Assembly: GCA_965214775.1 (NCBI GenBank)
Contig: OZ243974.1
Coordinates: 1,920,001-1,984,000, forward strand
Direction: 5' to 3'
Origin: Nitrosopumilus sp.
GTDB taxonomy: Archaea > Thermoproteota > Nitrososphaeria > Nitrososphaerales > Nitrosopumilaceae
DNA: 64,000 nucleotides
In this document: positions 34,116-63,070 of the stretch, piece by piece
Layout: each line of letters starts with the position of its first letter
How positions within the stretch are numbered: the stretch's first letter is position 1
Program-made: the position numbers and the translations under genes
The notes under the pieces: model-generated
Database searches by the model: none
Told to the model about the DNA's origin: nothing
Seen by the model: the letters and a program-made list of their open reading frames with translations, nothing else

Positions 34116-34117
34116 CG

Positions 34118-42660: not shown

Positions 42661-44296
42661 GTATGAGGTCACCTATTCCCCCACATTAGGTCAAATATTG
42701 ATGACGATGCCGATCCTTATACCATGATCGCGTATACTAGACATTATGAAAGGTCAACCCTCCACATACTGTGAGATCGAGGCATCTATAGCATCGTCGA
42801 CGGAGAGGATACAGAGTCTGGAAAAGGGCATCAAGGAACGTGACAACATCATCAAGGAACAGGGCAATGTCATCAAGGAACGTGACACGACCATTGAGAA
42901 ACTAAACAATATAATCAAGGATCAGGGCAGCAGGCTCCGATACTATGAGAACGAGAACTCGCCCCCGTCGGCAGACTCGCTTGCGTGGAAGGAGCAAAAG
43001 GCACAGAGGAAAAAGGAGAGGGCCCGATCCGATGCTGCAGCCGGGAATAACGGCACCAGGAATAACAGGAAAAAGCCCGGCGGCCAAAAGGGCCACAAGG
43101 GCGTATCGCGCGTCCACCGGCCCACCCGGGTACAAAGGCACTACTTTCCGGGCGGACAGGCGCCAGAGTGCTGGTGCGGCACCCCCACGAAGATCATGAA
43201 CAGGTCGCAGACACGCGACATGATTGGATTTGAGATCAAGGCGATTGAGACTCGCCACGAGTCGCAGAGGGCAGTATGCCCAAAATGCGGCACGTATCAT
43301 ATTGCCCCCAACGGCCTGCCCCGATGCGGCAACTACGACACGAGCGTGGTCACAGCCGTCACCAAGCTGCGCAGCGAGGGCGTTCCATACAGCAGGATCC
43401 CAGGCATCCTGTCAGATATCACGGGTGTGGACATGTCAAAGTCAACTGCAATCAACAACGTGGGGCGCGTCTGCGAGGCCGCAAAGGCGCCTGCCGAGGC
43501 CATCGCAAAGGAGGTAAAGAGCTCAAAGACCGTCTGCATAGACGAGACGGGGATCAACCTGGCAGGCAAGACGGGGTGGGTGTGGACCATACTGTCAGCA
43601 GCAGGCATACTCATGATATACAACAATACAAGGAAGGCCCTGGTTCTGGACCAGTACATGAGCGGGTACAAGGGCGTCGTCACATCGGACGGATATCCCG
43701 CATACAAGAGGTTCGATCCGGGGGGAAGGCACCAGCGGTGCTGGGCGCACGAGCTGCGATCCCTCCTGTATGGTTCGCAGAAAAAGGACGCCCCGCTGTT
43801 TGCAGGGATCCTGTACCGGCAGGGGCAGCAGCTGTTCAGGGACGCCAAGACGTGTCTGGAAGGGTGGGACAAGCTGTCCCCCGAGGATCTCCTAGATCTT
43901 GAGGAGAGGACGGGGATAAGGGCCGCCGACGGGCTGATGGGCCGGCACTCGCCGGAGCTGCGCCGGCGGTTTGAGACCAACATGCGCAACGTCCTGTTCG
44001 GATACAGGGATACGCAGGACGAATCGTTGAAAGCTCTTGTCAGGCGGATGTACAATGCCCTGCCTGGCCTGTTTGCATTCCTGGAATACGAGGACGTCGA
44101 GCCCACCAACAATTCTGCAGAGCGGGCGCTGCGCCCCGTCGTACTGCAGGACAAGATAAGCGGCCAGATCAAGGGCGGCCTGGTCTGGATGGACAGGTAC
44201 GGATGGCTCAATACATGCACCTCGACGTGGAAGCTGCAGGGCAAGTCCATCATGGTTGAGGTAGCCAAAATAATTCAGGGGTAGGTGACCTCATAC
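42661..44296 (+). mobile_element. IS66-family element (single ORF), 8-bp TSD
   Basis: TIRs GTATGAGGTCACCTA / TAGGTGACCTCATAC; ATCTCAAG at 42653-42660 and 44297-44304. Confidence 0.93.
42746..44284 (+). CDS. IS66 transposase
   Basis: KKPGGQKGHKG, IDETG, SDGYPAY, QRCWAH, PTNNSAERALR. Confidence 0.95.
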   Translation: MKGQPSTYCEIEASIASSTERIQSLEKGIKERDNIIKEQGNVIKERDTTIEKLNNIIKDQGSRLRYYENENSPPSADSLAWKEQKAQRKKERARSDAAAGNNGTRNNRKKPGGQKGHKGVSRVHRPTRVQRHYFPGGQAPECWCGTPTKIMNRSQTRDMIGFEIKAIETRHESQRAVCPKCGTYHIAPNGLPRCGNYDTSVVTAVTKLRSEGVPYSRIPGILSDITGVDMSKSTAINNVGRVCEAAKAPAEAIAKEVKSSKTVCIDETGINLAGKTGWVWTILSAAGILMIYNNTRKALVLDQYMSGYKGVVTSDGYPAYKRFDPGGRHQRCWAHELRSLLYGSQKKDAPLFAGILYRQGQQLFRDAKTCLEGWDKLSPEDLLDLEERTGIRAADGLMGRHSPELRRRFETNMRNVLFGYRDTQDESLKALVRRMYNALPGLFAFLEYEDVEPTNNSAERALRPVVLQDKISGQIKGGLVWMDRYGWLNTCTSTWKLQGKSIMVEVAKIIQG

Positions 44297-44403
44297 ATCT
44301 CAAGCTTTACTGTAAAAAACACGTTTCCTGTCGCGATAACGTCGCTGCTGTCGGTGGTAGCCCTCAATATCGTGCCCGAGATCGTGTCGATGATGGGGGT
44401 GGC

Positions 44404-47223
44404 ATGACGGTGTTCGGGCGGAAAAAAAAGGAGACTGCAAGGCCCGCTCCCAGAAGGACGGCCAAAAAAACGGACTATGTGGGGTTCAGGTACGGCGACC
44501 CGGCGCTGGCGCCGACCAGCGTGGATGCGAACGCGGCATTCGGGATATCGGCAGAGGAGCGCGTCCACACAGCAATCTTCGGGCTGCCAGGATGCGGCAA
44601 GTCGTCGATACTCAAGCTCCTCATATACCAGAACATCCGGAACGGCCAGGGATTCATGGTGATAGACCCGCACGGGGAGCTGGCGCGCGACGTTATGAGG
44701 ATGATACCAGAGTCGCGGCACCAGGACGTCATATATGTCAACCCGGCCTCGCTTTACAGGTTCGGCCGGACCGTCCAGATCAACCCGCTTGAGGTAAAGT
44801 CGGAGGACGAGCGGTACGTGGTGGTCATGGGGTTTGTCAACATGCTGCAGAACCTCTACAAGGACTCGTGGGGCCCCAGGCTTGAGACTGTCCTGCGAAA
44901 TGCCGCCAACGCCCTTGTCGAGACCAAGGAACACAACAGGCTGTTCAACATATCCGCGATGATAACGGACGAGGGAAGCCGGGAGGCCATACTGGACGAC
45001 GTGGCGTCAAAGCCAGTAAGGCACTTTTGGGAGGAGATATTCGCAAAGCAGTACGCCAAGGATGCGGGCTCCTCGGCGTACAACAAGATAGACAAGATAC
45101 TCTCGACGCCGACGGTGGCAGCCATGCTTGATGCCGCAGAATCAAGCATCTCGATCCAGGACATAATCGAGAACAGGAGGATGCTCATAGTGGATCTCTC
45201 AACCGGCGCCTCGGACGACATCTGCCAGTTCCTGGGGTCCATATTTCTCAACATGGTCTACGTGTACGCCAAGAAGAGGATAGACATACACGGGGACTCC
45301 GACGACGAAGGCCTCGATCCGTTCTATCTTTACGCCGACGAGGCGCACATGTTCTCAAACACCACGATGTCGGAGATGCTCCGCGCCCTGCGAAAGTTCA
45401 ACATAAAGATGACCATCGCGACCCAGACGTGCAACGCGTACGACAGGGAGTTCTCCATGGAGATACCCGGCGTCTGCAAGACCATAATCACCGGAAGGTG
45501 CGACTATAACACGGCAAACCTGTTCCGCGCAAACATGAGCATGTCAGTAGAGGACATGCAAAAGATTCCGTCGCACTCCTTTGCGCTGGCGTCTGACGAG
45601 GGCGGGGTGAGGGCCCACGGGGTCTTCCGCTCAAGGCCGGTCCCGCTTGAGGGAGACGCAGAGTCGGCGGGGCGCGACTGGAAGGAGGTCGCAAAAAAGT
45701 CGGCTGCCAGGTGGGGCAGGCAGATAATGATGGAAAAGTACATCCCGCGTGCCGGCATCGGCAAGCTGCTCTTTACTCCGGTCGAGGCCTGCATCGTACA
45801 CCTGATGCACTTTGACAACCGCGACTGGTACCGCGAAGAGATATTCCAGGCGGCAAAGACCGTGTTTCCGGGCATACTTGAGAGGCACATAGCGGGCGCC
45901 CTGGACAAGCTGACGCGGGAGCTGTATGTCAGGATAATGTATCCCAAGAGTGATGACAGCGACCAGCACGACTCCATAAAGAGATACGTCCTGGGCGAGA
46001 GGAGCAGCAAGACGTACCTGTCAGAGGCATACGGAGGGAGGCGAGCCGGAGGCGAGGGGCACAACGACGTGCTCTTCAAGATAGCAGATGAGAACAGGCG
46101 GCGCCACAGATACTGCATACCGGATCTCGGCCAGGGCGGGGACGAGGCGCCGGACCTTCTGATAATAGAGCCGGGAACGGTAAAAAGCAGGGAGGGATAC
46201 ATGACGTACGATCCGCACAGGTGGAACGAAAAGAACAGGCTTGCCGTCGAGGTGGAGACCGATCCGGGAAAGCACATGGAGCACTCCGTATACAACTATA
46301 CCAAGAACCATGATCGCGGCTATGACGTGTGGTTTGTCTGCTTTGAGGAGCGCCACAGGGAAAGGCTTGAGGAGGCCATAAGGCAAAAGCATCCCCCCTT
46401 TGAGGGGTGCAAGATGGACACCATAAACGCCGGCCGCGTCCTGAAGGGCGCAGACGATCTGCCGGAGACGTTTGAGGAGACATTTACAGACGTCGCAGTC
46501 AGAAAGATAGACGAGATACTAAAGACACTTGCAGACGACACGCCACTTGAGAGGCAGCCCACCAAGAGTACGGTTCCACGGGAGGCGCTTGCAGACGCCT
46601 CCAAGGGAACAAGGGATCTTGCCGAGGTTTACACAAATACCGTCGGCTCATCAAGGGAGGACGTCAAGTCCTCCGTGCACGTGCCTGCGGCAGATCCCCC
46701 GCCGGGCCACATAGAGAACGAGACGCAGTGGGCGATACTTGACGGCATACGGAAGGCAGGTGCCATGGAGCGCGACGCCGATCTCATCCGCGAAAAGTTC
46801 GGGATAGGCCGCGCAAGCAGGAACGAGATAAAGGGCGCCATCGAGTACCTGCTGATGAAGAAGATGCTGCGGCAGGTATACTATTCGAGGCAGAAAAAGA
46901 CAGGCTCCCTTGACGGGAGCGGCGACAGGAAGACAAGCAGACGTGTCGCGATGCTCGTGCCGTTTGAGAGTCATCCGGAGTCCGGGTCAGGCGGTCATCC
47001 GGAGCCGGCACCCCCGGCCGATCAGGAATCTGACACAGGACACGATCCTGAACAGGATCCTGATCAGCTCCCCGGCGAAAAGCCGAGTGCTGCCATAACC
47101 GACTTTGATGCGTCCGAATACACGGACATTGCTCTTGCGGCGATGCTGGCAGATGAGACGCAAAAGGCAAACCACGCTGCGGCCAAGGCCGAGCTTGACA
47201 GACGGGAGGACGTCGAGGACTGA
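44404..47223 (+). CDS. VirD4/TraG-type coupling ATPase with C-terminal wHTH and PD-(D/E)XK-like extension
   Basis: GLPGCGKS, VIDPHGELA, WGPRLE, YLYADEAH, LRKF...IATQ; then GGEGH...APDLLII...LAVEVET. Confidence 0.85.
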   Translation: MTVFGRKKKETARPAPRRTAKKTDYVGFRYGDPALAPTSVDANAAFGISAEERVHTAIFGLPGCGKSSILKLLIYQNIRNGQGFMVIDPHGELARDVMRMIPESRHQDVIYVNPASLYRFGRTVQINPLEVKSEDERYVVVMGFVNMLQNLYKDSWGPRLETVLRNAANALVETKEHNRLFNISAMITDEGSREAILDDVASKPVRHFWEEIFAKQYAKDAGSSAYNKIDKILSTPTVAAMLDAAESSISIQDIIENRRMLIVDLSTGASDDICQFLGSIFLNMVYVYAKKRIDIHGDSDDEGLDPFYLYADEAHMFSNTTMSEMLRALRKFNIKMTIATQTCNAYDREFSMEIPGVCKTIITGRCDYNTANLFRANMSMSVEDMQKIPSHSFALASDEGGVRAHGVFRSRPVPLEGDAESAGRDWKEVAKKSAARWGRQIMMEKYIPRAGIGKLLFTPVEACIVHLMHFDNRDWYREEIFQAAKTVFPGILERHIAGALDKLTRELYVRIMYPKSDDSDQHDSIKRYVLGERSSKTYLSEAYGGRRAGGEGHNDVLFKIADENRRRHRYCIPDLGQGGDEAPDLLIIEPGTVKSREGYMTYDPHRWNEKNRLAVEVETDPGKHMEHSVYNYTKNHDRGYDVWFVCFEERHRERLEEAIRQKHPPFEGCKMDTINAGRVLKGADDLPETFEETFTDVAVRKIDEILKTLADDTPLERQPTKSTVPREALADASKGTRDLAEVYTNTVGSSREDVKSSVHVPAADPPPGHIENETQWAILDGIRKAGAMERDADLIREKFGIGRASRNEIKGAIEYLLMKKMLRQVYYSRQKKTGSLDGSGDRKTSRRVAMLVPFESHPESGSGGHPEPAPPADQESDTGHDPEQDPDQLPGEKPSAAITDFDASEYTDIALAAMLADETQKANHAAAKAELDRREDVED

Positions 47224-47309
47224 CAGTCCGCCGGCCCATGCGGTGCTGGCAGACTGACAGACAAACGGGCGGGATTTCCCCCTTAAAACGTGCCATGGCA
47301 TTTTTTTCC

Positions 47310-48032
47310 ATGAACCGAAGGAACAAAAAATACGTCGATTTCAAAAAGATCTGCGGGGTGCTCCACGTGTCAGAGGCCAGGCTTGAGAAGCTCCTGGGCC
47401 AGTGCATCCGGAGCAAAAGCGACAACATCTCAATATACAACAAGGCCACAGACATGCGGTACTATCTAAAGCCCGTATGTGTGGAGGGAGAGACGTGCAT
47501 GGTCGAACTCTACGAGGTCCACGGCGGCTCTGAAAACAAGGTGATATTCCGCAACTGGGTGTGCACCAGGAGGCCCAAGAACAGGAAGAGGGAGGCCGCA
47601 ATATCTGAGATCTTTGGCGTCGTGATCCTTATCGGGATAGCTGGCGTCGGTGCAGTACTGTTCCACTCGATTGCGATCGAGTGGGCAGAGACCGAGGAGA
47701 GGTATGACACCGAGCTGGTCGTCTTCAAGCTGGCAAAGCTGTCTGCAGGAGACAGCGTGGCGCTGGCCGAGATATCATTTTTGACGTACGGGGAAGGGGC
47801 CGTATCACTGTCATTTGGGGAGGATCTTGAATCAGTGGATCTGCTTGATTCTGACGGGGAGCCGCTGGACGGCGATACAACGCGCGTAGAGGAGCTGAGC
47901 TCGGGCAGGCTCGTAACGTTCGAGGGGCTGGTCGACATTCCAGAGGATGCGGGGCGCGGCAGCCACATCCATGCGGCCATCATACTGGATGGCGGGCAGG
48001 AGGTACAGCACGTGGTGAGGATCAGTGGCTAG
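47310..48032 (+). CDS. Pilin-like protein with internal class III signal and a long N-terminal extension
   Basis: NRKREAA/ISEIFGVVILIGIAGVGAVLF about 100 aa into the ORF; TTAA box 27 nt before ATG 47310. Confidence 0.65.
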   Translation: MNRRNKKYVDFKKICGVLHVSEARLEKLLGQCIRSKSDNISIYNKATDMRYYLKPVCVEGETCMVELYEVHGGSENKVIFRNWVCTRRPKNRKREAAISEIFGVVILIGIAGVGAVLFHSIAIEWAETEERYDTELVVFKLAKLSAGDSVALAEISFLTYGEGAVSLSFGEDLESVDLLDSDGEPLDGDTTRVEELSSGRLVTFEGLVDIPEDAGRGSHIHAAIILDGGQEVQHVVRISG

Positions 48033-49155
48033 GAGTGCAAGCCAGGCCACCGGCGAGCTGCTGTCTGCCATTGCAGTCATAGGCGTCACCGCTGTGGCAG
48101 CCGCAATACTGTTTGTTACGTTTGCAGAGCAAAACCAGGAGGGAACCGAGGTGATAGACACCAGGGGCGAGATAGAGCTGGCACGCGCCTCGGAGCTGGT
48201 CGACACCTCGCATGTCAGCTGTGCGGGCACGCGCCTCTCGTTTCTGTTACACAACTATTCCAGGGATTATGCGATGAGTACCGACGGGTTCAGGGCATAC
48301 ATTCTTGACAGCGGCGGCGAGCTTGCGTTCCGCCTGTCAGAAGGCGGCGACGACTATATCGAGATAATGACTCCAAGCGTTACCGGCGGCGCGTGGCACC
48401 ACGTCGTGCTGACAAACGACGGCAGCGGAACCCGCGAGGGCATGAAGGTCTACCTTGACGGCGAGCCTGCCGAGTCTGTTCCCGGCGGCGGAGCCGGCGC
48501 CGTCACAGGATCGATCCTCAACAATTTCCCCATAGGTATCGGGGCAAGCAGTACGGGAAAGGATCCGGTATCGGATGCGGCAATCGACGAGCTGATATTG
48601 TCCAGGCACCTGCTGACCCCCGGGCAGGTGGAGGCCTATTATTTGAGCGGGACATATCCGTACACGGCCATCATTCATCTTCCATTTGAGGATGATCTGG
48701 TTTCAAACGACGTATCCAACCACGGAACACTCGTAAGCGGAACCGAGGAGTACACCGACTCCACCAGGGAACCTGGCCTGGGACGTGCGCTGGTTCTTAA
48801 CGGCACACATGTCACGGTACCCGAGGTCAACCTGGACTATGACGCCAATGAGATATTCACGATATCGTTCTGGATAAAAAAGACGGCGCCTGACGACGTA
48901 GACGTGTCCATACTCTCAAAGTCAGACCAGTACTGGAACTCGGGGCTGAACGTGTGGATGTGGTCCGGCTCCGGAGGCAAGCTCAAGGACGGCGACCTTG
49001 GCAGCATCGAGTGGCTTGCACTCGACATGGCCACGGCCGCCGACGAGATACCTCCGGCGACCACGATAGTAGTGAGATATGACGGATACGTCTGCGGTGA
49101 CATGCTGATCCTGCAGACGCCGTCAGGGGAGATAGTCCGGGTGAGAACCGCATGA
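48025..49155 (+). CDS. Pilin-like protein with LamG/concanavalin A-like domain (putative adhesin)
   Basis: GELLSAIAVIGVTAVAAAILF; GAWHHVVLT...KVYLDG...IDELIL; FTISFWIK. Confidence 0.75.
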   Translation: MARSASQATGELLSAIAVIGVTAVAAAILFVTFAEQNQEGTEVIDTRGEIELARASELVDTSHVSCAGTRLSFLLHNYSRDYAMSTDGFRAYILDSGGELAFRLSEGGDDYIEIMTPSVTGGAWHHVVLTNDGSGTREGMKVYLDGEPAESVPGGGAGAVTGSILNNFPIGIGASSTGKDPVSDAAIDELILSRHLLTPGQVEAYYLSGTYPYTAIIHLPFEDDLVSNDVSNHGTLVSGTEEYTDSTREPGLGRALVLNGTHVTVPEVNLDYDANEIFTISFWIKKTAPDDVDVSILSKSDQYWNSGLNVWMWSGSGGKLKDGDLGSIEWLALDMATAADEIPPATTIVVRYDGYVCGDMLILQTPSGEIVRVRTA

Positions 49156-51506
49156 GGGCCGTGCCGGCAGCGCTGTTTCTACTGCTGCTGGCATCTGCCC
49201 TCCCGCTGCTGGCATCCTTTCTTGCCGAAGACGCCTTTGCCCACCCGTACGGAAGATGCAGGCCGTGGATAACGGGATCCTTGCACTATGACGTCAGGGA
49301 CGCCGACGGGAACCCGAGAAGCAACCCCAACGACACGCTGTATCCCGGCGATGCCGTAAGGTATGAGTTTAGCTATGGATGGAGCGGCAACTGCTACCGC
49401 GAAAGGACGTATCCGGTGACTGACAGCGGCGCCATAAGCGTATACGGATCGCACGGCTCCCACGGGTCGCGCGGCGGCAACGCGGAGGCGCTCATAGCCA
49501 GGACCAACGACTGCCACGGAGGGGGAAGCCGCGGTGCCGCAGGATACGGGGGCGATGACTCGTGGGACCGCGACAGCGCAAAGACCGGCTGCGGCGACAT
49601 CAAATACAAGATCTCAGGCAAGGAAAAGCACCGGCACCGGTGCGGCGATGGCTACTGCACGTTCTACATCACGCGCTGGGCACACGACACGCTGCATCCT
49701 GCCACGGTTGCCCCCGTAGTCGAGGTCCAGATGTACGAGCACATCATAAGGGATCCCTACGGATACATGGCAGCAAACGGAGACCATACAAACTATGTAT
49801 GGGATCCCATAGCAATTGAGCATGCGGCCGACTTTACGTACAAGAACCAGAGGGAGGGGACGATAACCTTTGACTATTCACGGGCGTTCTCCCCGCTCGT
49901 CGAGGAGGGGGGATACGAGTGCGACCGGAGGTGCGTCCGATCCCTGGCGGTGGCGGCAGGCTCGCCGCTTGATGCCACAGGAATAGGATTCCTTCCGTAC
50001 CAGCATGCGTCAGAGAACGGGGGAGGGATGTACGCGTATGCGTCGCCGGGGCTTGACGTGATGGGCAACAGGGAGATACGGTATGACGTCCGCGTCCTCA
50101 ACGAGGGGCGCCTGATAAACACGCACCACAACCAGACAGTCCAGCTGATAGTCAGCTATGATCCGGTGTTTGACAAATATGAGTATCCGGTGCTGGCAGA
50201 CGGGCGCAAGTACGCGTATGATGACAGGCAGGGACTCGTGATGCTGTACTCGGGCTCCGTCGGCAGCGGCCCGGACGACGACGGGCTGCTTCACGGGGAC
50301 AGGCGGAGCAGGATAAACGCGTTTTACCCCAACACCACCATGCACTCCCTCTTTGACGGCATCCCAGACGTAGCCATTGATCCCGATCTTCTTGAGTGGG
50401 ATTCCATAGATCACGTGAGAGGGACGGATCCCGACGGGTGGCTCAGCCTGGATGCAGGACACGCGATGTTCGAGGACGAGGGGTATGGCATACTGAGGTT
50501 CTCCCAGGAGATCTCTGGCATCGTGCACCGGGACTCTAACAACCTCAACTTCCGCCACAATGCAACCACACACAACGTGATAGCGTCTGACAGGTGGGCA
50601 GGCCATGATTCTTATGCCAACTTCAACTATACCTACCAGTACCCGCACACGCCGTTTGCGGCATGGTACAACGTCACGGCCTTTGACGCGTCGGGGGCAG
50701 CCGACGACGGCGTGACGCCCATAACGGTATCTGCCACCGTCGCAAACCTGACGCACGCAGGCTCCGTGCCGCAGCACATACCGGCAGGACAGGGCAGGGT
50801 CACCGTAATGCTGGATGCGTACGTCCATGACAAGGCGCTTCACGACACCGGCGATGAGGCCTTTGCTGCTGCCGTACTTGACGAGACGTACGACATGGAG
50901 AACGGCGCAGGCGGCACCGGCGACGTATCGATGTGGCTAAAAAAGACGGGACTGTCATTGGATGAGAACTACATCCCTGGAAACGACATACTCGGACAGC
51001 CGCGGTACCTCTTGCTGGGGCTCGAGTCGGAGATGGACACCGTCATAGAGATACCCGGCAGGGAGATCAGCCGCATACTTCACACGGAGTTTGACGTCGA
51101 TTACGTCGAGGAGATGACCGTGTCCGAGATTCCGCTGTCCATGTCGCGTTCTGTCAGCGACGGTCTCCGGACGCAGCTGGTCTCCGTGTCTGTCCCGGAA
51201 TGGTTCGGGTACATAAGCTCCATCGAGATGAACGGGGAGAGCGTCGACTTTGGGACCGACTGCGTCTACGAGTGCGTCTTTACTGACATCGATGGCGGAA
51301 ACGTCACGGTATACAACGTCTGGGGCGGGACTGCCGTGGGGACGCTCAACGCCTCGGACATTCTGGTGCATGCCACCCCAGAGGTCGTCTTTGAGGAAAG
51401 CCACGATCTCATCTGGTATGTCGTGGCCGTAGGCATCATGGGGTTTGTGGCGTATTCTGCCCTGAGGCATTTCTGGAAGAGGACGCTTGTATCTTCGTCG
51501 CAGTGA
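49152..51506 (+). CDS. Large secreted, membrane-anchored protein
   Basis: Signal peptide, Cys/His/Gly-rich N-domain, C-terminal TM. Confidence 0.75.
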   Translation: MRAVPAALFLLLLASALPLLASFLAEDAFAHPYGRCRPWITGSLHYDVRDADGNPRSNPNDTLYPGDAVRYEFSYGWSGNCYRERTYPVTDSGAISVYGSHGSHGSRGGNAEALIARTNDCHGGGSRGAAGYGGDDSWDRDSAKTGCGDIKYKISGKEKHRHRCGDGYCTFYITRWAHDTLHPATVAPVVEVQMYEHIIRDPYGYMAANGDHTNYVWDPIAIEHAADFTYKNQREGTITFDYSRAFSPLVEEGGYECDRRCVRSLAVAAGSPLDATGIGFLPYQHASENGGGMYAYASPGLDVMGNREIRYDVRVLNEGRLINTHHNQTVQLIVSYDPVFDKYEYPVLADGRKYAYDDRQGLVMLYSGSVGSGPDDDGLLHGDRRSRINAFYPNTTMHSLFDGIPDVAIDPDLLEWDSIDHVRGTDPDGWLSLDAGHAMFEDEGYGILRFSQEISGIVHRDSNNLNFRHNATTHNVIASDRWAGHDSYANFNYTYQYPHTPFAAWYNVTAFDASGAADDGVTPITVSATVANLTHAGSVPQHIPAGQGRVTVMLDAYVHDKALHDTGDEAFAAAVLDETYDMENGAGGTGDVSMWLKKTGLSLDENYIPGNDILGQPRYLLLGLESEMDTVIEIPGREISRILHTEFDVDYVEEMTVSEIPLSMSRSVSDGLRTQLVSVSVPEWFGYISSIEMNGESVDFGTDCVYECVFTDIDGGNVTVYNVWGGTAVGTLNASDILVHATPEVVFEESHDLIWYVVAVGIMGFVAYSALRHFWKRTLVSSSQ

Positions 51507-51578
51507 CCGCATGGCAGGCCGCGCCTAGGGGCCTGACTCCCTTCCGGCTTAATATGGAAACGCATTCCATTAGGTATC

Positions 51579-51654
51579 AGCGGGGTGGGGAAGCCAGGCC
51601 AATCCCGGCGGGTTCATTGCCCGCAGACCGGCAGTTCAAATCTGTCCCCCGCTA
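51579..51654 (+). tRNA. Initiator-type tRNA-Met(CAT) with atypical anticodon loop
   Basis: AGCGGGG/CCCCGCT acceptor (A1-U72), GGGA/TCCC D-stem, GCGGG/CCCGC anticodon stem, loop TTCATTG, GGCAG TTCAAAT CTGTC T-arm, A73; TTAA box 30 nt upstream. Confidence 0.85.
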
Positions 51655-51761
51655 TCATAGGTGCCAGCTTCCTACACCTTCCAGCGGGAACCGGCTCCCG
51701 CTGACTTGTAAGTCCCAAAATCCAGCTATGCCTTTAAATTATAAGACTCGTGGGCTCATCA

Positions 51762-52517
51762 GTGAGAACTAGGCTAATTGCTTGCGAGCATGCAAGCACG
51801 ACAATACTTGACGGGGAGACGGTCTGCAGGAAATGCGGCGTAGTCCTCGGCGAGCAGCGCGAGCAGGTGCCTGCCGGCGAGCGTGAGGCTGCCGGGGCAA
51901 AGTCTACTACAAACATCTATGAGAGGCATGTCACAGGCAGCCGGGACATAATTCCGGATACCGACCAGATGAAGTCCCTCCGGCGCTATTCGCACACGAA
52001 CATCTATGACAATGACAGCAGGAAAAAGCTCAGGAACATATCTCGGTTTTCAAACGCATGCGACTCGCTGGGGATCGATGACACCGCTGCAGAGTACGCC
52101 GTAAGGCTGTTCCACGCGGCCCTCAAGCAGAGGGGCGGCGACAGGCGGACAGCCGACGTGGCTGCCTGGTCTATCTACAAGAGCTGCAAGAACCACGGCA
52201 TCCCGATCGACGGCAACGTCATAGCCGACAACGTAAGGCGGCAGTTCGGGCGGATGCGGATAGGCGACATTATGAGCATCGCGTATGACATGATGGACAT
52301 CCCCGTCAAGGACAACCCCGACGGCGTCATGAAGTACCACTTTCGGCTGGTCCTCAAGAGGCTGACAAAAAAGCTCCCCCGCATGGACGACAGGCAGTAC
52401 TCAAGAAGGCAGGCAGATGCCTGGAACCTGTACAATACGCTATTTCTGTCCGGCTCCTACGACAAGAGGGCAAAGAACGCAGTATGCAAGGCCTTTGGAA
52501 TAAGGAGGAACACATGA
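51762..52517 (+). CDS. Divergent transcription initiation factor B (TFB/TFIIB) homolog
   Basis: Zn ribbon CEH...GETVCRKCGVVL; cyclin fold CDSLGI...A.RLF...VAAWSIYKSCKNHGIP; second repeat degenerate. Confidence 0.8.
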   Translation: MRTRLIACEHASTTILDGETVCRKCGVVLGEQREQVPAGEREAAGAKSTTNIYERHVTGSRDIIPDTDQMKSLRRYSHTNIYDNDSRKKLRNISRFSNACDSLGIDDTAAEYAVRLFHAALKQRGGDRRTADVAAWSIYKSCKNHGIPIDGNVIADNVRRQFGRMRIGDIMSIAYDMMDIPVKDNPDGVMKYHFRLVLKRLTKKLPRMDDRQYSRRQADAWNLYNTLFLSGSYDKRAKNAVCKAFGIRRNT

Positions 52518-53635
52518 AGGCCTCAGAGGAAAGGGTGATGACAAGCCGCATCGAGGAGCCCATATACCAGGCAACCGTCATCATATCATCAAACGTCAGG
52601 CTTCTTGCAAAGGCCATCGCAGAAAAGGGAGTCCCTCCTACCAGGCCGATCCTCGCAAAGCTTGACGGCAGGTACTATCCTGTCGGAAACATAGAGACCG
52701 TCATGGCTGCCATGGAGGCCGGGCTGAAGAGCATTGCATGTTCTGTCATACCCGTAAAGTCAAAGACGGACATGATAAACCTGCACCTGCTGCATACGCG
52801 CTCTAGCACCTACAACCCGGTAAGGTTCACCAGGATGATAAACGAGGCCATAAGTGAGAACGTCGAGATTGACATCGGAAACCTGCCAAACTCGTTTCGG
52901 AGGAGGATCAGTCTTGTCCCCGACGTCGAAAAGCGGCTTGACGACTTTGTGGCGGACATGGGCAGGAAGATGATCGAGGTCCCGTCCATGCTGCACATAG
53001 TGGCCCCCCTCTCCCGCCTTGAGCCCGAGGATCAAAAGGCGGCGCTGAAGATGGTCCTCAACTATACGACGATGCGCAAGCAGGCGTACCCGCCAGACCA
53101 GATAACGCTCAACCAGATCTTCGAGCAGTACCGCTACAAGGACTCTGGAGGAAACGGCGATGATGGTGATGACGGTGACGGCGGGCCCGGTGCCTCCGGG
53201 GGCGATGACAATGCAGGGGAGCCCGGGGCAAATCCTAGGTCAAAGCCGGCGCAGGATCCTGCCGGTGACGATGACGTCGAGATGGATCTTGCAAAGAAAA
53301 GGGGATCTGTCGGCGTCCGGATAAAGCCAAAGTCCGACTCGATAGAGTACCAGTGCAAGTGCAGCAGGAAGATACTCGTGAACCTCAAGAACGGGATGGT
53401 CCAGAGGATGGAGGATAATGGGGCAAACATACTTGCCGTAAACGACGATGAGAACACGTCAGTCTGCTACATGCTCCCGGGAGAGCTGGCATCACAGCTG
53501 GAGCTTGACGTCTCTGACATCATAAACTGCTACCTCATAGGCGGCAAAAAATCCGAAAAGGCCGCCCTGATCACCAAGAGAAAGATCCCAAAGAAGGTGC
53601 AGGCCGAGATCTCAAGGGCGCTGAGGTCCGCCTGA
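52514..53635 (+). CDS. ParB/Srx N-terminal domain protein
   Basis: LAKAIAEKG...PIL...GRYYPVGN...AAMEAGLKSIACSV; coupled to the TFB stop (ATGA). Confidence 0.65.
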   Translation: MKASEERVMTSRIEEPIYQATVIISSNVRLLAKAIAEKGVPPTRPILAKLDGRYYPVGNIETVMAAMEAGLKSIACSVIPVKSKTDMINLHLLHTRSSTYNPVRFTRMINEAISENVEIDIGNLPNSFRRRISLVPDVEKRLDDFVADMGRKMIEVPSMLHIVAPLSRLEPEDQKAALKMVLNYTTMRKQAYPPDQITLNQIFEQYRYKDSGGNGDDGDDGDGGPGASGGDDNAGEPGANPRSKPAQDPAGDDDVEMDLAKKRGSVGVRIKPKSDSIEYQCKCSRKILVNLKNGMVQRMEDNGANILAVNDDENTSVCYMLPGELASQLELDVSDIINCYLIGGKKSEKAALITKRKIPKKVQAEISRALRSA

Positions 53636-53721
53636 GCTTGCACGCAGCGTGCCTGTCTGGCAGCCGGCCCGGGTGCGCCGAGGCCGGCATTGGGCTTGCG
53701 TCGCCTGAGTGCTTTGTCGGC

Positions 53722-54285
53722 ATGTCACACGACTGGTACACCGAGCACATATCAAGGAGCGGCAGCATGTACGGCCTGCTGGACATCATGATGAGCCTGA
53801 TGCATGCACGCAACGCGGTTCCAAGGGAGGATCTTGCAAAGGCGGCCTGCTCGGCAGGAATCCGCAAGAATGAGATCTCGCGGTGCAAGAGGCGGGGGCT
53901 GATAGGCAGCGACGGAGCGCACCTGCACGTCACAGGAAAGGGTTACGGACTCTTTGCTGCGGCCAGGATGGGCATACGGCCGCTGTCGCTTCTGATACTG
54001 TGCCATGCCCACGCATATGTCAGGGCCACAGGAATGTACGGCAAGTCAAACGACATGTTCTCAGAGATGTACGGCGTGGTCGTAAAGAACCACGTGTTTT
54101 CCAGCAGGTTCTCTGCCCTGGTCAAGCACGGCTGGATAAGGAAACAGGGGAGGCGCGGCGCGTTCTGGGAGTTCCCGCGCGCCGGGGAGCTGGAAGGCTA
54201 TGCCAGCATACTTGACGGCATACATGCAGCAATGTCGGAGAAAAAGACCATTTTAAGTGACGCGGGGGTTTTCGCGCATGGATGA
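53722..54285 (+). CDS. Putative winged-helix protein
   Basis: RRGLI...LHVTGKG and FSALVKHGWIRK wHTH-like patterns; start uncertain. Confidence 0.45.
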   Translation: MSHDWYTEHISRSGSMYGLLDIMMSLMHARNAVPREDLAKAACSAGIRKNEISRCKRRGLIGSDGAHLHVTGKGYGLFAAARMGIRPLSLLILCHAHAYVRATGMYGKSNDMFSEMYGVVVKNHVFSSRFSALVKHGWIRKQGRRGAFWEFPRAGELEGYASILDGIHAAMSEKKTILSDAGVFAHG

Positions 54286-54958
54286 CTATCTTGCAGTCGC
54301 CGTGGCAGTCATAATGATGGCGCCTCTTGCGTGGTCGGACGTCCGGAGCCGCACCACGTACAATGACATCACGTTATCCATGACGGGGGTCGCCGCATGC
54401 TTTTTCGTCTACGGGTTCCTTACGCGGTATATGCACCAGGATCCCCTGTGGCTGCTACTGACGTTTGCCGGCATCGGCATGGCGGCAGCCATGCTCCTGA
54501 TGTATTTTATGCGCGTCTGCGGGCTCGGGGACGTGGCGGCTGCCGCCATAATCGCCATGATGATCCCGCAGGTCGGCGGGTTTCCAGCCGCGTTTGCGGC
54601 CATATTCTGCTCGTATATTCTGGGGATTGCCTTCACCGTGTCACACAACGTCTGTGCAAACATGTCTGACATGGCGCGCGGCAGAAAGTACTGCCGCTCG
54701 ATGATATACACGCACATCAAGCGCAGGGGGGAACGGTTCTGCTGCAGGCCTGCCTCCCTGTCAAGGATAGGTTCTGTCGGCCACGACGGCGACCTCCTGG
54801 ATGCGGATGGCGGCGACCTGTTTGTGGACGAGAAGGTAAAGGGAATGCCCGTTACCAAGAGCGTACCGATGGTCACCATGATGTTTGCGTCCCTGGTCGG
54901 CGTCTCACTCCTCTCGCTGTTTGGAGGCATAGGCGGGTATCTTGACTTCCTTAAATAG
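54278..54958 (+). CDS. Prepilin peptidase (A24, PibD/FlaK-like)
   Basis: AWSDVRSR, GLGD, VPMV motifs; multi-TM. Confidence 0.85.
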   Translation: MDDYLAVAVAVIMMAPLAWSDVRSRTTYNDITLSMTGVAACFFVYGFLTRYMHQDPLWLLLTFAGIGMAAAMLLMYFMRVCGLGDVAAAAIIAMMIPQVGGFPAAFAAIFCSYILGIAFTVSHNVCANMSDMARGRKYCRSMIYTHIKRRGERFCCRPASLSRIGSVGHDGDLLDADGGDLFVDEKVKGMPVTKSVPMVTMMFASLVGVSLLSLFGGIGGYLDFLK

Positions 54959-54977
54959 AACCCGGCATTACACTGTG

Positions 54978-55895
54978 ATGATTCCAATCGGACTTGACAT
55001 CGGAACAGGATACGTCAAGATTTCCGGAAACGGAAGGAAGAGAAAGTTTCCATCGCTGTATTCGTGCATGTACTCTGACGGGCGCGGCGACATCGAGGAC
55101 CAAAAGGCGCCGGCAAGAAAGAGGGTGCTCGTAGAGTCAACCGGCATGGATGCGCTTGCCATGGGTTCTGCGCGGAACGGCGTCATGATACGCCCCGTAA
55201 AGCACGGCGTCCCGCACAACGATTCGGGCTTTGCCGCACTCGTGAGGGAGGCAGTCCGGTCGATAGGGGTAAGCGACCCCTCGCAGGCAGTCATTGCCGC
55301 AGGCGTGACTTATGACGCGCAGGACAAGGTTCCGCAGATAAGCCGCATAATAACCAAGACGCTGTCCCCCGGCGGGCTGCGCATAATCCCGCAGGCCTAC
55401 GGCACGCTGATGTCATGCAAGACTAGGAGGGGCACCGTCGTGAACATAGGCCACGGCACTACCGAAATAATAGCCATACGCGACGGCATGCACGAGGGCA
55501 CGTCCATACCCAAGGCCGTAAGCTTTGTCACTGACCAGCTTGACAAGCGCCGGGGCTCCTACGTCGACTACAAGTCGCTCCTGTCGCGCGACGAGGCCAT
55601 GACCGCGCGGCTGGTAAAGCTGCTGGCAGAGCACATCGCCGACGAGGTCTCAAGGTTCGGCGCCTCGACTGAGGGGATAATACTTGCGGGCGGCGGCTCG
55701 CTCCTGCCAGGAATGCGCGAGAACCTGGAGGCCATGCTCGGTGTCACGATCACGGTTCCCGACGATCCCGTATACAGCAATGCTGCAGGCCTTGAGATGA
55801 TTGCAGCCAAGAGATCCGGCAGGGCCGCCGCTCCGGAGGACAGGGCAGAGACTGCGCCTGCGGCCGCCGGAAACCCGCCCGGGCCTTCTGCCTGA
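54978..55895 (+). CDS. ParM/StbA-like actin-fold ATPase
   Basis: IGLDIGTGYVK, IIPQAYG, VVNIGHGTTE, IILAGGGS, SNAAG. Confidence 0.85.
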   Translation: MIPIGLDIGTGYVKISGNGRKRKFPSLYSCMYSDGRGDIEDQKAPARKRVLVESTGMDALAMGSARNGVMIRPVKHGVPHNDSGFAALVREAVRSIGVSDPSQAVIAAGVTYDAQDKVPQISRIITKTLSPGGLRIIPQAYGTLMSCKTRRGTVVNIGHGTTEIIAIRDGMHEGTSIPKAVSFVTDQLDKRRGSYVDYKSLLSRDEAMTARLVKLLAEHIADEVSRFGASTEGIILAGGGSLLPGMRENLEAMLGVTITVPDDPVYSNAAGLEMIAAKRSGRAAAPEDRAETAPAAAGNPPGPSA

Positions 55896-55968
55896 CTGCC
55901 GTGGTGCATATCTGGCGCACGCAGGCCGCACGCCGATGTCTTAATAGCGGAATGATATCCTGTATTGT

Positions 55969-56907
55969 ATGTCGGCTGTGGTGACTGGTATCGTCGTTGT
56001 TCTGGTAGTCGCAGGCATAGCCTGGTTCGGGGTCAATCATGCAGGTGATGATATGACGCCGGAGATGCATGAGGATGCCGGTTATGTGCCGCCCGTCACA
56101 ATAGCCGTCGATTCACCGCCGACGAGGAATTATGCGGCAGTCGCCGGCGCGGCAAGGCAGGCGGCCGACGCATGGAACTCGGCCAATCCAGGCGGGGTAT
56201 ACTTCAGTGTCGGCGCAGCTGATGACACCGACATAGTGATTGTGCTGACAGACAAGATAGCCGGCGATACCGTGGGTCTGTACCAGTCTGGACGCTGGGG
56301 CGAGCCTGCCACCATAACCGTAGAGAGTGGAAGGCCGTGGTGTGACGGCGTGTTCCGCACGTACTCGGAGGGAATGATGGCAGATACGATAGCCCACGAG
56401 CTGGGACACCACCTGGGTCTCGGCCATACCGCCGACGAGTCGCACCTGATGTACGGCATGCATGATCCGCCCCCCGTACACGCGCATTCATTTGACGATC
56501 TCGGGTACTCCATGCCGCAGCTTGCGGGGCACCAGCAGTTTGGCGCGCTGGTGCCGCTGGCAGCCGAGATGGATGCCGCCGAGTCGGAGATGGCCGTGCT
56601 CGACGCCGGCATGGACGATGCCATCGGGCGCATAGATCGTCTTGCGGCAGAGCACGAGAGTCTTGCGGTTGTGTATGACGAGATTGCCGGCCGGTACGCG
56701 TCGCTTGCAGGCGACGGCGGCGCACACCTGCAGGCCCAGGCCCTTCATGACAGGCTTGAGGAGATTCTTGTGGAGATACGGGCAGTCGAGGACGGCATGG
56801 AGGGGGCCGTGGCAGACTATGACGACATGGAGGCCAGGTACAACGGGGCCGTCGGCAGGTACAACGCCGCTGCCGAAAAGTACAACTGCGCGGCAGGCGG
56901 GACGTAG
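55969..56907 (+). CDS. Membrane-anchored metzincin (matrixin-like) metalloprotease with coiled-coil tail
   Basis: HELGHHLGLGH and Met-turn SHLMY; N-terminal TM; long heptad C-terminus. Confidence 0.85.
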   Translation: MSAVVTGIVVVLVVAGIAWFGVNHAGDDMTPEMHEDAGYVPPVTIAVDSPPTRNYAAVAGAARQAADAWNSANPGGVYFSVGAADDTDIVIVLTDKIAGDTVGLYQSGRWGEPATITVESGRPWCDGVFRTYSEGMMADTIAHELGHHLGLGHTADESHLMYGMHDPPPVHAHSFDDLGYSMPQLAGHQQFGALVPLAAEMDAAESEMAVLDAGMDDAIGRIDRLAAEHESLAVVYDEIAGRYASLAGDGGAHLQAQALHDRLEEILVEIRAVEDGMEGAVADYDDMEARYNGAVGRYNAAAEKYNCAAGGT

Positions 56908-57218
56908 CGAATGGATGCCGGGATTGAACCCATGGAGTGGAGGGAGAGTGGCGGCGGGAGTACGACATGCTGGAGCGCGACTTTGACCGGTTCCTGGACT
57001 ATTTTGCCAGAAACAAGCAGTGCTGGTGCGACATGGACGGGTGCAAGACGTGCGAGGGGTCTGTGGTGCTGGTGTCGTTAGGAGGTGTTTGAGAATGCTT
57101 TATGTGTGAGGACGTAAATGCGAGCTGCCACAGTGCATTGGATCTGAAAGACGCAGACATGACGCAGAAGAGACGTAGAACCGGCACGCGTGATGACAGA
57201 TATCGTCTGCATCACACA

Positions 57219-58062
57219 CTTTCCACAACGATAACGTTGTGGCCCCATTGAAGCTGACAGTAATGAATTTGAGGCAGAGATGGATATGATCTTTCCACAA
57301 CGATAACGTTGTGGCCCCATTGAAGCCAGAGTATGAATCCAAAACCAGAAAGAAGGTACCAACTTTCCACAACGATAACGTTGTGGCCCCATTGAAGCGT
57401 CGTACATAGTTCCTCATAAGTAGGATCTAAGCGATCTTTCCACAACGATAACGTTGTGGCCCCATTGAAGCATGCGCCGTTACTCTGAGACCCAATTGCG
57501 CCGAGGTGCACTTTCCACAACGATAACGTTGTGGCCCCATTGAAGCTCGACATAGCAGGATTATCTTCTTCCTCATTCCCAGATCTTTCCACAACGATAA
57601 CGTTGTGGCCCCATTGAAGCTCTGGCAGGTGAGGCGACCAAAAAACAATTGGACGCGCTTTCCACAACGATAACGTTGTGGCCCCATTGAAGCCCACGAC
57701 CTGATGGTCAAGTTTTCCTCAGGAGGATCCTTTCCACAACGATAACGTTGTGGCCCCATTGAAGCTCAGTCCCCACCGCAGATGCTTTCCGAACGCCCAT
57801 TCTCTTTCCACAACGATAACGTTGTGGCCCCATTGAAGCCTGAGGCAGGCAGACAGACCATAATGCGTGACCTGATTCTTTCCACAACGATAACGTTGTG
57901 GCCCCATTGAAGCCAGCATGATTCGCACGTCCTGCTTGCAATATGCAGAAAGCTTTCCACAACGATAACGTTGTGGCCCCATTGAAGCTGTTCTATGCCA
58001 TGAGGGAGTAGTTACCAATACCCCATCTTTCCGCGACGTTATCGCTGCGGCCCCATTGAAGC
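57219..58062 (+). CRISPR. CRISPR array, 12 repeats (36 bp) and 11 spacers (36-39 bp), type I-G-like repeat, no cas genes in window
   Basis: CTTTCCACAACGATAACGTTGTGGCCCCATTGAAGC at 57219, 57291, 57363, 57436, 57511, 57585, 57658, 57730, 57804, 57878, 57953; divergent copy at 58027. Hairpin CCACAACG/CGTTGTGG; 3' ATTGAAGC handle. Confidence 0.97.
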
Positions 58063-58328
58063 GGGCCTCACCGGCGTTTTTATGCTAATCATACATCATA
58101 CATCATGGGCAGCGATGTTGGTAATGATGATGCATGTAACGGCATATGCGGAAAGCTGGATCGGACAAATGCCCTCCTGCAGGATATTCTGACAGAGCTC
58201 AAAAAAATGAATTATCCCCATCCCCCGTAAAGCCTTATCTTGCTGGAATTTCAGTATTACATACCATGGATTGTATCGTGCGCAAAAGTTCCGTCAAAAG
58301 ACAGCCGTTTCCTGATTTTATTGCAATC

Positions 58329-58712
58329 ATGACCACAAACACAATGAGCCAACTCAGTATTTCAAGTGGCGACTATGTTGTTTTTGAGAATACCCTGATC
58401 AACGAATCTGACAGGTCACAACCGCCAAAGACCCTGAAAATAAAAGCTCCCGTGATAAACGGCAGTGATGAAGTGGTAGAAATGGAGGATCTGAAGGATG
58501 GTGAGGTGGCCATGGATCAAACGTGCCGGGCAGCCATATCAGTCAAGGAGGGCGATTCAGTCAAGGTCACAATATCCATCACGGCTGTCTTTGCTATAGG
58601 CGATCCCAACCCACTCTATTGGATCCCAATCATTGCATTTGGCGTGTGGACTGCATGGAGCATACTGACATCATCCACATACAAGACCGCATCATCCGAA
58701 CTGTCTTTCTAG
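58329..58712 (+). CDS. CDC48-N-like double-psi beta-barrel fragment with C-terminal TM
   Basis: MSQLSISSGDYV...GEVAMDQTCRAAISVKEGDSVKV; start uncertain. Confidence 0.5.
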   Translation: MTTNTMSQLSISSGDYVVFENTLINESDRSQPPKTLKIKAPVINGSDEVVEMEDLKDGEVAMDQTCRAAISVKEGDSVKVTISITAVFAIGDPNPLYWIPIIAFGVWTAWSILTSSTYKTASSELSF

Positions 58713-59555
58713 TTTTTCGATTCTGAGGGGCCTTGTGCCGTGTGGCAGCTCTGCAAGCCGTATGGGATTGTCCGCAGAGTATTTTTCAGACAGTATCCTT
58801 CCGTATTCTTTGCTGTTTCTGGCAGCGCTATGCGCGAATTCAGACGCATCGCATGGTGGTGGTGGTTGCGCCTCCTGCCAGCCTGCATCATCGGCCAGCA
58901 TGCCGCACAGGGTTTCCAGCATGTCTTTCTGTGACAGCGCCCTGAACCTGCGGCCTGTGGCATGCACCTCTGCAAGGCTGATCACCTGGTTGTCAATACA
59001 CAGCACCCCCCCAGTCCCGACATATGCATAGACTGGGGAGAACGACTCTCCGTTTTTTAGTGTGAGGCCGGCGTCGATTTCGGCCAGCATGTAGTGGTTG
59101 CCGCGTCCCTCACTTGCATCCATCACCTCGATCTGCTTCTCATGCAGCACGTTGACCCACACGTCAACTGTCGTACCTGGGGATCTCGTAATTGTTGCGG
59201 GTACTGACCCGTACGAAGCAAAGAACGGGGCATACACTACATCGCAGTCATTCAGGGTTGCCCGTAACACCGGCATCGGGTCAGACTCTGAGAATTTGGA
59301 TTTTAGCTGGGCAGGACAGGCATTGGAACCATACCCCACCACCATGTATCTGTCCTGTTTTGAGGGGGCCGCAGCAATATCACTGTGGAAGTTCAAAGAC
59401 TCCTCTATCTTTTTACCGGCTGTTTCGTGTATGGGCACGATGTGGTTCCCGCAAAATACAAACGACGTGTCAGGACGCCTTCCTGGGTATGATTCGGGCA
59501 CGTGCCTTGGCGCCGGCCCAAATTCTTCCACCGGGGTTTCTCCGTTACCTGACAT
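58692..59555 (-). CDS. Gamma-glutamylcyclotransferase-like fold protein
   Basis: VVGYGSN, MDASEG..Y, VYAY motifs. Confidence 0.65.
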   Translation of the reverse strand: MSGNGETPVEEFGPAPRHVPESYPGRRPDTSFVFCGNHIVPIHETAGKKIEESLNFHSDIAAAPSKQDRYMVVGYGSNACPAQLKSKFSESDPMPVLRATLNDCDVVYAPFFASYGSVPATITRSPGTTVDVWVNVLHEKQIEVMDASEGRGNHYMLAEIDAGLTLKNGESFSPVYAYVGTGGVLCIDNQVISLAEVHATGRRFRALSQKDMLETLCGMLADDAGWQEAQPPPPCDASEFAHSAARNSKEYGRILSEKYSADNPIRLAELPHGTRPLRIEKLERQFG

Positions 59556-59752
59556 TATGCTGTGTCATGGTGTCTGCGTATTTAAGATGCGGTGATTTAC
59601 GGCATGAATGCCCGGCTCCCAGAAAGCTGAGGACCTGATTTTTTGCTTATTACCGGTGGATCCGTAATACGTGTGTTGAGCACGATGATGTATTTCGCGG
59701 CACTGGCTGCGCTCTTGGCAATGATGATCCCCCTTCCCTTCTTTATGGCACA

Positions 59753-60126
59753 CGCCGACGGGCTGATGGGCAGGCACTCGCCGGAGCTGCGCCGGCTGTT
59801 TGAGACCAAGCTGCGCAACGTCCTGTTCGGATACAGGGATACGCAGAACGAACCGCTGAAAGCTCTTGTCAGGAGGATGTGCAATGCCCTGCCGGGCCTG
59901 TTTGCGTTCCTAGAGTACGAGGGCGTCGAGCCCACCAACAATTCCGCAGAGCGGGCGCTGCGCCCCGTCGTACTGCAGGACAAGATAAGCGGCCAGATCA
60001 AGGGCGGCCTGGTCTGGATGGGCAGGTACGGATGGCTCAACACATGCACCTCGACATGGAAGCTGCAGGGCAAGTCCATCGTAGTCGAGGTAGCCAAAAT
60101 AATCTAGGGGGTAGGTGACCTCATAC
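59753..60126 (+). pseudogene. IS66 3' fragment, near-identical to the 3' end of 42661-44296
   Basis: ADGLMGRHSPELRR...EVAKII and the TIR TAGGTGACCTCATAC. Confidence 0.9.
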
Positions 60127-60393
60127 GATCTGAGCGTCGACGGGTTCGAGTGCATCAGGTCGCAGGAGATGTATCCAGTCCTGAAGCGGAGGTTCGACGT
60201 AGAGATCGAGGTTCCGGGCGTCTCATTCGCAAGGAGATTCGTCGAGTCGCCCTTCGGCCAGAACTACAATCCCGACAACCCTGCAGACAGGGCGTGGCTG
60301 GACAGGATCCTTGAGATGGATGAAAAGCATATGAAGTCACACGGCTTGAAACCCGAGAGCGTCTTCCTGATTCTCAAAGGGATCGGCGGCTGA
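60127..60393 (+). pseudogene. Orphan C-terminal gene fragment (possibly SAM methyltransferase) truncated by IS66
   Basis: Coding-like frame that begins at the IS end (FECIRSQEMYPVL...ILEMDE). Confidence 0.4.
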
Positions 60394-62806: not shown

Positions 62807-62924
62807 ACGCATCCTCTTTTTTGCGGTAATCTGTTTGTTTGCGTTGCCGTTTATTTTGGCACCATCTGAATTTTGTTTTTGAGACACATATGAACACGGG
62901 TTAACACCCGGGCCCGTAGTAGTG

Positions 62925-63050: not shown

Positions 63051-63070
63051 AAAAAGGAAAATGAGAAAAG

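Follow-up and report, generated by a model that had tools for sequence, protein, structure and literature searches.

A foreign island in a Nitrosopumilus genome carries an extra initiator-type tRNA gene with the anticodon loop UUCAUUG

That mobile elements carry tRNAs with altered anticodon loops is a known idea. In the closest described system, the tRNAs of phages, changes in the anticodon loop have been proposed to evade anticodon nucleases, as excerpts of the work of van den Berg et al. 2023 (PMC10264068) describe. The initiator is itself a target of such enzymes, and the abstract of a second paper reports its cleavage by enterobacterial VapC toxins (PMC5175351). Extracts from two further sources bear on what a loop must retain: the CAU anticodon is the main determinant for MetRS, being enough by itself in E. 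coli and of importance in Haloferax volcanii as well (PMC9976931), and archaeal ANN-reading tRNAs carry large modifications on A37, with a functional natural U37 tRNA-Ala in Methanocaldococcus jannaschii (PMC7668247). New here are the location on a chromosomal island of an archaeon, the initiator identity of the tRNA and the pyrimidine at position 37, and so is the frequent presence of U37 initiators on viral contigs. The full-text literature, subscription journals and supplements aside, yielded no account of a mobile element that carries an initiator tRNA with a pyrimidine at this position.

The window, by which we mean the whole stretch of DNA analyzed, spans 64,000 nucleotides of a Nitrosopumilus sp. 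genome. ARAGORN identifies in it a tRNA-Met(CAT) gene, here named iMet*, whose coordinates are collected in Table 1 with those of its surroundings. Archaeal initiators are marked by a CAU anticodon, an A1-U72 pair and the G-C pairs 29-41, 30-40, and 31-39. All of these features, including the three consecutive G-C pairs, are present in iMet*. The acceptor stem reads AGCGGGG/CCCCGCT and is followed by the discriminator A73; the D stem is GGGA/TCCC with an 11-nt D loop containing GG; and the anticodon stem is GCGGG/CCCGC, with G29-31:C39-41 next to the loop. The variable loop is AGACC, and the T stem, GGCAG/CUGUC, holds a single G-U pair and closes a TTCAAAT loop. The usual set of tertiary bases (U8, A14, G18G19, U33, G53, TTC, A58, and C61) is also present. 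The minimum-energy RNA fold is a cloverleaf of -35.3 kcal/mol, with a modest z score of -1.8 against shuffled sequences. The Rfam model RF00005 matches a 96-nt slice at 46.5 bits (E 1.4e-9; gathering score 29), as against 60.6 bits for the host initiator. An earlier note, made from the letters of this DNA, had described four paired stems with A1-U72, three G-C pairs and the loop UU-CAU-UG, and ARAGORN, the sequence, the fold and the RF00005 match to the 96-nt slice all agree with that description. With default filters, the same model failed to report iMet* when given the whole window, a 451-nt slice or the complete genome, which we read as loss in the speed filters; in practical terms, standard covariance-model runs missed the gene on full-length input.

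Table 1. Features of the window, with positions counted from its first nucleotide
Feature	Position	Strand	Basis or remark
Intron-bearing tRNA-Ser(GGA) gene of the host, marking the left edge of the island	19555..19652	+	RF00005 40.6 bits; ARAGORN intron mode; synteny
Foreign island, IS-rich, ending past the window at genome ~1,996,600, ~57 kb in total	19653..64000		Synteny, GC, transposases
TBP homologue	25336..25956	+	PF00352, E 1.9e-8
T2SS-F-like membrane protein, IS66 transposase, HerA/TrwB-like ATPase (putative conjugation or pilus module)	40865..47223	+	Domain matches
784-aa protein, family unassigned, directly upstream of iMet*	49152..51506	+	Marker for finding related elements
TATA-like box TTAATAT, -30 to -24 of iMet*	51549..51555	+	Spacing as in host tRNA genes compared; consensus match only
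iMet*, initiator-type tRNA(CAU) gene	51579..51654	+	ARAGORN; RF00005 46.5 bits; same in contigs of 4 runs; CCA not encoded
iMet* anticodon loop UUCAUUG (TTCATTG in DNA)	51613..51619	+	Read from sequence, ARAGORN cloverleaf
8-bp hairpin CAGCGGGA/TCCCGCTG	51682..51703	+	Fold
Gene downstream of iMet*, weak TFIIB zinc-ribbon match (TFB-like)	51750..52517	+	E 0.0029, below Pfam's cut-off
Prepilin-peptidase-like and actin/MreB-like genes	54257..55895	+	Domain matches

The loop of iMet* does not have the canonical archaeal form, C32 U33 CAU A37 A38. U32 lies at 51613, the anticodon at 51615-51617, U37 at 51618, and G38 at 51619. These three departures from the initiator consensus all fall within the 7-nt loop (7 of 76 positions), so that the earlier claim of changes concentrated in the loop, with intact stems, holds. 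Contigs of four runs from four studies, one of which may be the source sample, cover the loop with no differences; it is therefore not an assembly error, and that origin, which the earlier note had raised as an alternative, is excluded. The predicted fold pairs U32 with G38 as a sixth anticodon-stem pair, which, if formed, would leave a loop of 5 nt. When 16 initiator-type tRNAs, loop variants included, are aligned, pairing holds in 98.2% of cells, with 10 of 21 pairs changed on both sides, and none of 500 shuffles scored as high in a control that ignores kinship.

The host genome without iMet* contains three CAU tRNAs, namely an initiator (genome 727225-727299), a G1-C72 tRNA at 379103 and an intron-bearing tRNA at 282815, all with the loop CTCATAA. 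This is a full canonical CAU set, and iMet* is therefore an extra copy. The comparison with the host tRNA-iMet, proposed in the earlier note, reveals a host initiator that has CAU, A1-U72, A73 and G29-31:C39-41 in common with iMet*; the acceptor, D, and anticodon stems are identical, and overall identity is 84%. The anticodon loop is CUCAUAA in the host gene versus UUCAUUG in iMet*, which also has a D loop one base longer and the variable loop AGACC. Two T-stem pairs, 49-65 and 51-63, have both bases replaced (A-U to G-C and U-A to C-G), and 50-64 becomes G-U. The longest exact run common to the two genes is, by eye, the first 20 nt.

Nearly all tRNAs have a purine at position 37, which in AUG readers bears a bulky modification. 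Among ARAGORN calls with a three-letter anticodon in this genome, position 37 is A in 31, G in 20, T in 3, and C in 1; the two T calls other than iMet* were made in intron mode with very long "introns" and are doubtful. The genome holds other unusual tRNA-like genes. A second tRNA-Arg(UCU)-like gene at 2746341-2746419(+) has C37 in the loop TTTCTCA and scores 47.9 bits with RF00005, its canonical counterpart lying at 697625. Three mutually similar extra tRNA-like genes, at 1226401-1226472(-), 1617530-1617602(-), and 2744588-2744660(+), have the anticodons GAA, CAG, and GAT, respectively; the 5' side of each one's own anticodon arm is partly copied 35 to 50 nt upstream, followed by a common TATA box and leader.

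Both flanking signals reported in the earlier note were recovered. Its TTAA box is part of TTAATAT, which stands at the spacing of the TATA-like boxes of the host tRNA genes set beside it. The downstream hairpin, 28 nt beyond iMet*, has a predicted stability of -15.6 kcal/mol (z -3.1), equaled by none of 200 shuffles. Its arms, AGCGGGA/TCCCGCT, copy the initiator acceptor stem, and the genome has AGCGGG with CCCGCT no more than 80 nt after it at three sites only, one in the host initiator, one in iMet* and one in the hairpin. The hairpin loop, ACCGGC, recurs in the variable loop and T stem of iMet*.

iMet* lies well inside foreign DNA. Synteny with five congeners reaches about the 3' end of tRNA-Ser(GGA), at window position 19652, and the genes that follow tRNA-Ser in congeners G012 and G017 resume here only at ~1,996,630 (window ~76.6 kb); about 57 kb have therefore been inserted. 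The insertion is absent from these two congeners, and its GC content is about 52 to 59% (54 to 59% in its core), versus 47.1% for the genome, in keeping with the earlier description of the tRNA as element-borne. The island holds many transposases, copies of which are scattered through the chromosome, and it also encodes a staphylococcal-nuclease-domain protein. A search for PF00589 integrases found none in the island and three in the genome, all elsewhere. Since the island has no recognizable integrase and is full of IS copies, it looks immobilized and may be decaying.

Several further features of this DNA deserve mention. Among the products of the island's own genes are a TBP homologue and a TFB-like protein, and an element in a genome of the same archaeal family (G379) likewise has two clear TFB genes. 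Just past the window end, inside the insertion, lies a second isoleucyl-tRNA-synthetase-like gene (1984519-1987893, minus strand; L345:516-3893). Its product has 87% protein identity to that of a copy at 2233934-2237257, and only the latter copy keeps flank synteny with a congener. The insertion copy is 13 kb from iMet*, with IS copies between, in DNA of ~50% GC. We weighed a link between this gene and iMet* and rejected it: the acceptor, D, and anticodon stems of iMet* are those of an initiator, and the synthetase gene is 13 kb away in DNA of different GC. The genome measures 2.83 Mb, compared with 0.7 to 2.2 Mb for 24 congeners, and contains dozens of near-identical IS copies. A search of the genome for McrA, run as a check for methanogens, found none.

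Of 301 genomes of the order, 30, this one included, encode a homologue of the 784-aa protein, and syntenic elements are present in G116 (51% identity for the 784-aa protein) and G238. In both, a homologue of the TFB-like gene comes after the 784-aa gene. The two genes are ~110 nt apart in G238, with no tRNA between them; in G116 they are separated by a 9.6-kb insert, and a tRNA or tRNA remnant is likewise absent. Across 20 loci with a 784-aa homologue, a tRNA lies within 1.5 kb at one, the iMet* locus itself, and at none of the other 19. Because the syntenic elements and the other homologue loci have no iMet* nearby, iMet* is accessory cargo of one element. No relatives of the 784-aa protein were found in the metagenome or viral contigs searched. 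In another genome, G169, a tRNA-Phe-like gene lies ~730 nt beyond the 784-aa homologue. The G116 element (L289-L291 joined) contains two tRNA-Phe-like genes, at 17365-17439 and 54064-54136, which have common 3' halves and, by eye, bracket most of the element. Each has a mismatch, C31-C39 in the first and A1-C72 in the second.

The loop itself is a singleton among relatives. A further 18 initiators, recovered from 40 related genomes, all show the loop CTCATAA, and a non-A37 version of the initiator-type arm pattern occurs in 1 of 351 genomes of the order, namely this one. Conservation of U37 and G38 in related elements, which the earlier note had proposed as a test, was not found, the gene being absent from G116 and G238, and because the loop is a singleton, conservation of UUCAUUG cannot be shown. 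A donor lineage was sought in 41 relatives, 121 family genomes, and 401 phylum genomes, none of which has an initiator more than 84% identical to iMet*.

Loops of this kind recur on viruses and other mobile DNA. A scan of IMG/VR for the pattern GGG-YUCAUUN-CCC followed by a T loop matched 78 stretches, 73 of them called tRNA-Met(CAU) by ARAGORN, with 49 distinct sequences. Their loops are CTCATTA (22), CTCATTC (19), TTCATTC (18), TTCATTA (6), TTCATTT (5), and TTCATTG (3), the last identical to that of iMet*. The C37 version of the pattern matched a single stretch, and this contrast of 78 versus 1 argues against random decay; it also provides a concrete set of tRNAs for testing. The canonical A37 loop is present in at least 114 stretches and G37 in at least 110, mostly as TTCATGC and TTCATGT among the matches listed. 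Virus-borne initiator-type tRNAs (L077-L154 and L351-L431) differ widely at positions 32, 37, and 38. One of the U37 cases, L077, is an A1-U72 initiator of eukaryote type on a giant-virus contig, with the loop CTCATTA, and others are members of tRNA arrays (L308; 14 viral loci have two or more tRNAs). The IMG/VR U37 initiators resemble iMet* in the three G-C pairs, CAU, U37, and often U32 with a non-A38. They differ from it in being mostly of bacterial type, with 1-72 mismatches and different bodies, and nothing points to common descent with iMet*. A BLAST search of iMet* against GenBank phage records returned no match.

The same pattern is found outside viral collections. One genome from each of 185,579 species, a set that may leave out the window's own genome, yielded 46 stretches, of which 26 are tRNA-Met by ARAGORN. 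These 26 are all from bacterial records, and the one archaeal match among the 46 is not a tRNA. In metagenomes, a scan anchored on AGCGG returned 33 stretches, including four archaeal-type U37 initiators with the loops TTCATTA (L294 and L295) and CTCATTA (L310 and L322). L310 adjoins a protein that matches a phage family (E 1.8e-89), and L294 is 5 kb from a tyrosine integrase. L294 and L295 are 94% identical over the tRNA and 142 nt upstream (219 nt), and 11 of the 13 differences, counted by eye, lie inside the tRNA, some of them compensatory.

Extra initiators with other loop changes are also carried by archaeal mobile DNA. Two Halococcus dombrowskii plasmids in PLSDB (NZ_CP095009.1, 207466-207539; NZ_CP095006.1, 351629-351702) have initiators with the loop TTCATAT, whereas the plasmid copies of Natronorubrum and Haloferax are canonical. 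The H. dombrowskii genes are like iMet* in being extra initiator-type genes on mobile DNA with an altered loop and unlike it in that the changes are at U32 and U38. Two genomes of the same archaeal family, G379 and G166, each have a canonical initiator and an extra initiator-type tRNA (L474:10832-10903 and L476:5150-5221, respectively) with the loop CCCATAA, a loop of eukaryotic initiators. These extra genes agree with iMet* in the AGACC variable loop, the GG start of the T stem, an altered loop and their place on mobile DNA; they differ in that the change is at C33 and that the short D loop lacks G18G19. The G379 gene sits immediately downstream of a gene for an ArdC-like anti-restriction protein, and its surroundings include two TFB genes, genes for a C5 methylase and an HNH nuclease, and distant homologues of genes of the present island. 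On whether the loop changes are peculiar to this copy, a matter raised in the earlier note, the answer is divided: analogous variants are carried by other elements, whereas the loop itself was found in only 1 of 351 genomes of the order.

Our leading reading, held tentatively and at somewhat less than even confidence, is that iMet* is a functional, loop-remodeled spare initiator that evades a loop-directed attack on the host initiator. It leads because the changes are confined to the loop, all pairs are kept, a promoter-like box is retained and similar loops occur on viruses; the recurrence of U37 on virus- and element-borne initiators favors a selected state over random decay. On this reading, iMet* would be functional cargo of a conjugation-type island that was acquired horizontally. 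The tRNA keeps the features read by MetRS (CAU and A73) and by the initiation machinery (A1-U72 and the three G-C pairs), and its loop is altered at 32, 37, and 38, the very positions read by loop-directed enzymes. With U37, the site of the bulky A37 modification is gone, and U32 with G38 stands in for C32 with A38. The spare initiator could then work when the canonical host initiator is attacked or disabled via its anticodon loop, whether by a host defense tRNase, by a rival element's toxin or through loss of a loop modification. It would then also be expressed, charged with methionine, used in initiation and resistant to such an enzyme. Evasion of a loop-directed enzyme, the mechanism put forward for phage tRNAs, is plausible and, by analogy, the best-supported one for the gene. 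U37 should, in turn, weaken the reading of AUG, which counts against a working initiator, as do the predicted narrowing of the loop by U32-G38, the singleton loop, the absence of the gene from G116 and G238 and of a tRNA within 1.5 kb at the 19 other homologue loci, the immobilized look of the island, and the lack of a nuclease candidate from a PIN search. That search (PF01850) of the host genome gave four hits at E<=1e-3, one of them over Pfam's cut-off and none in the island; a VapC target is therefore not indicated.

The strongest competitor, which we nonetheless consider rather unlikely, is that iMet* is a neutral passenger or young pseudogene, a donor initiator that was carried in and whose loop drifted before any stem was broken, while the host copy stayed canonical. 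The uniqueness of the loop among relatives and the absence of the gene from the syntenic elements would fit such a history, as would an IS-riddled island without an integrase, and U37 with a predicted 5-nt loop looks harmful for decoding. Neutral drift sits poorly, however, with the confinement of all three non-consensus changes to 7 of 76 positions in a gene whose stem pairs and tertiary bases are all intact, and with the retained promoter-like box. It is also hard to match with the 73 virus-borne initiators that have loops of the U32/U37/N38 kind, as against a single C37 case, a distribution unlike random decay.

Less probable still is a specialized initiator that, having no A37 modification and a different 32-38 pair, alters the choice or efficiency of start sites and might serve island genes together with the TBP- and TFB-like factors. 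The TBP homologue of the island, the TFB-like gene adjoining iMet* and the position of the G379 variant, also among TFB genes, are consistent with such a role, as is the retention of the anticodon and initiator marks. The elements of G116 and G238, however, manage without iMet*.

Two further explanations are improbable, and to a similar degree. The first gives the sequence a role at the DNA level, as a present or former recombination (att) site or integration target rather than a working tRNA gene. Elements of this family do sit at tRNA genes (tRNA-Ser here and the two tRNA-Phe-like copies around the G116 element), the clustering of L294/L295 differences in the tRNA looks as if the tRNA body had been exchanged, and a hairpin resembling the acceptor stem lies 28 nt downstream of iMet*. 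Against this, iMet* is full length and internal, its flanking island genes are syntenic in G238 and G116, the exact run with the host gene ends after the first 20 nt (by eye), no flank of the host locus is in common, and the island has no PF00589 integrase. The second holds that iMet* is transcribed and folded as a decoy RNA outside translation that would titrate a tRNase, an initiation factor or a modification enzyme. A kept fold with a loop predicted to be unfit for decoding would suit a decoy, and the nearby acceptor-stem minihelix could add to the function; a single-copy gene would be a weak sponge, however, and the presence of virus-borne U37 tRNAs in arrays suggests use in translation. 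The simplest form of the DNA-level idea, an att-site remnant of the host tRNA as mentioned in the earlier note, is rejected, since the gene is full length, inside the island, 84% identical to the host gene and compensated in its stem changes, in an island in which the PF00589 search found no integrase. Nor does the rest of the genome contain repeats of the tRNA-Ser gene or the iMet* flanks of the sort that an att duplication would leave.

Beyond the spare-initiator reading of this one gene, we suggest a wider possibility, on which we would not insist: U37 initiators, often with U32 and a non-A38, may form an undescribed functional class on mobile elements in several domains. Its members would be the 73 phage tRNAs, the giant-virus gene L077, the archaeal virus-like and integrase-linked contigs, and the iMet* island. 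If so, the class would supply initiation with no need of an A37 modification, or in a form invisible to loop-directed tRNases, and iMet* would be its first case in an assembled archaeal genome. Initiator tRNA is the one tRNA on which all translation depends, and an initiator that has neither a purine nor a modification at position 37 would tell how far the initiation machinery depends on the anticodon loop. The contest between tRNases and replacement tRNAs, argued so far for bacterial phages, would also widen to archaeal mobile elements and to the initiator.

Set beside the phage tRNAs, as far as the excerpts of that study (PMC10264068) describe them, iMet* differs in residing on an archaeal chromosomal island, in having a pyrimidine at position 37 and in that its cognate nuclease is only hypothetical. 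The island also departs from Shigella phages, which, according to the same excerpts, generally avoid encoding an initiator tRNA. Within the scope of those excerpts, the two systems are alike in that the tRNA is borne by a mobile element, duplicates a host tRNA and has a loop that differs from that of the host, and in the same comparison the loop changes of iMet* would fall beside the region where VapC is known to cut initiator tRNA.
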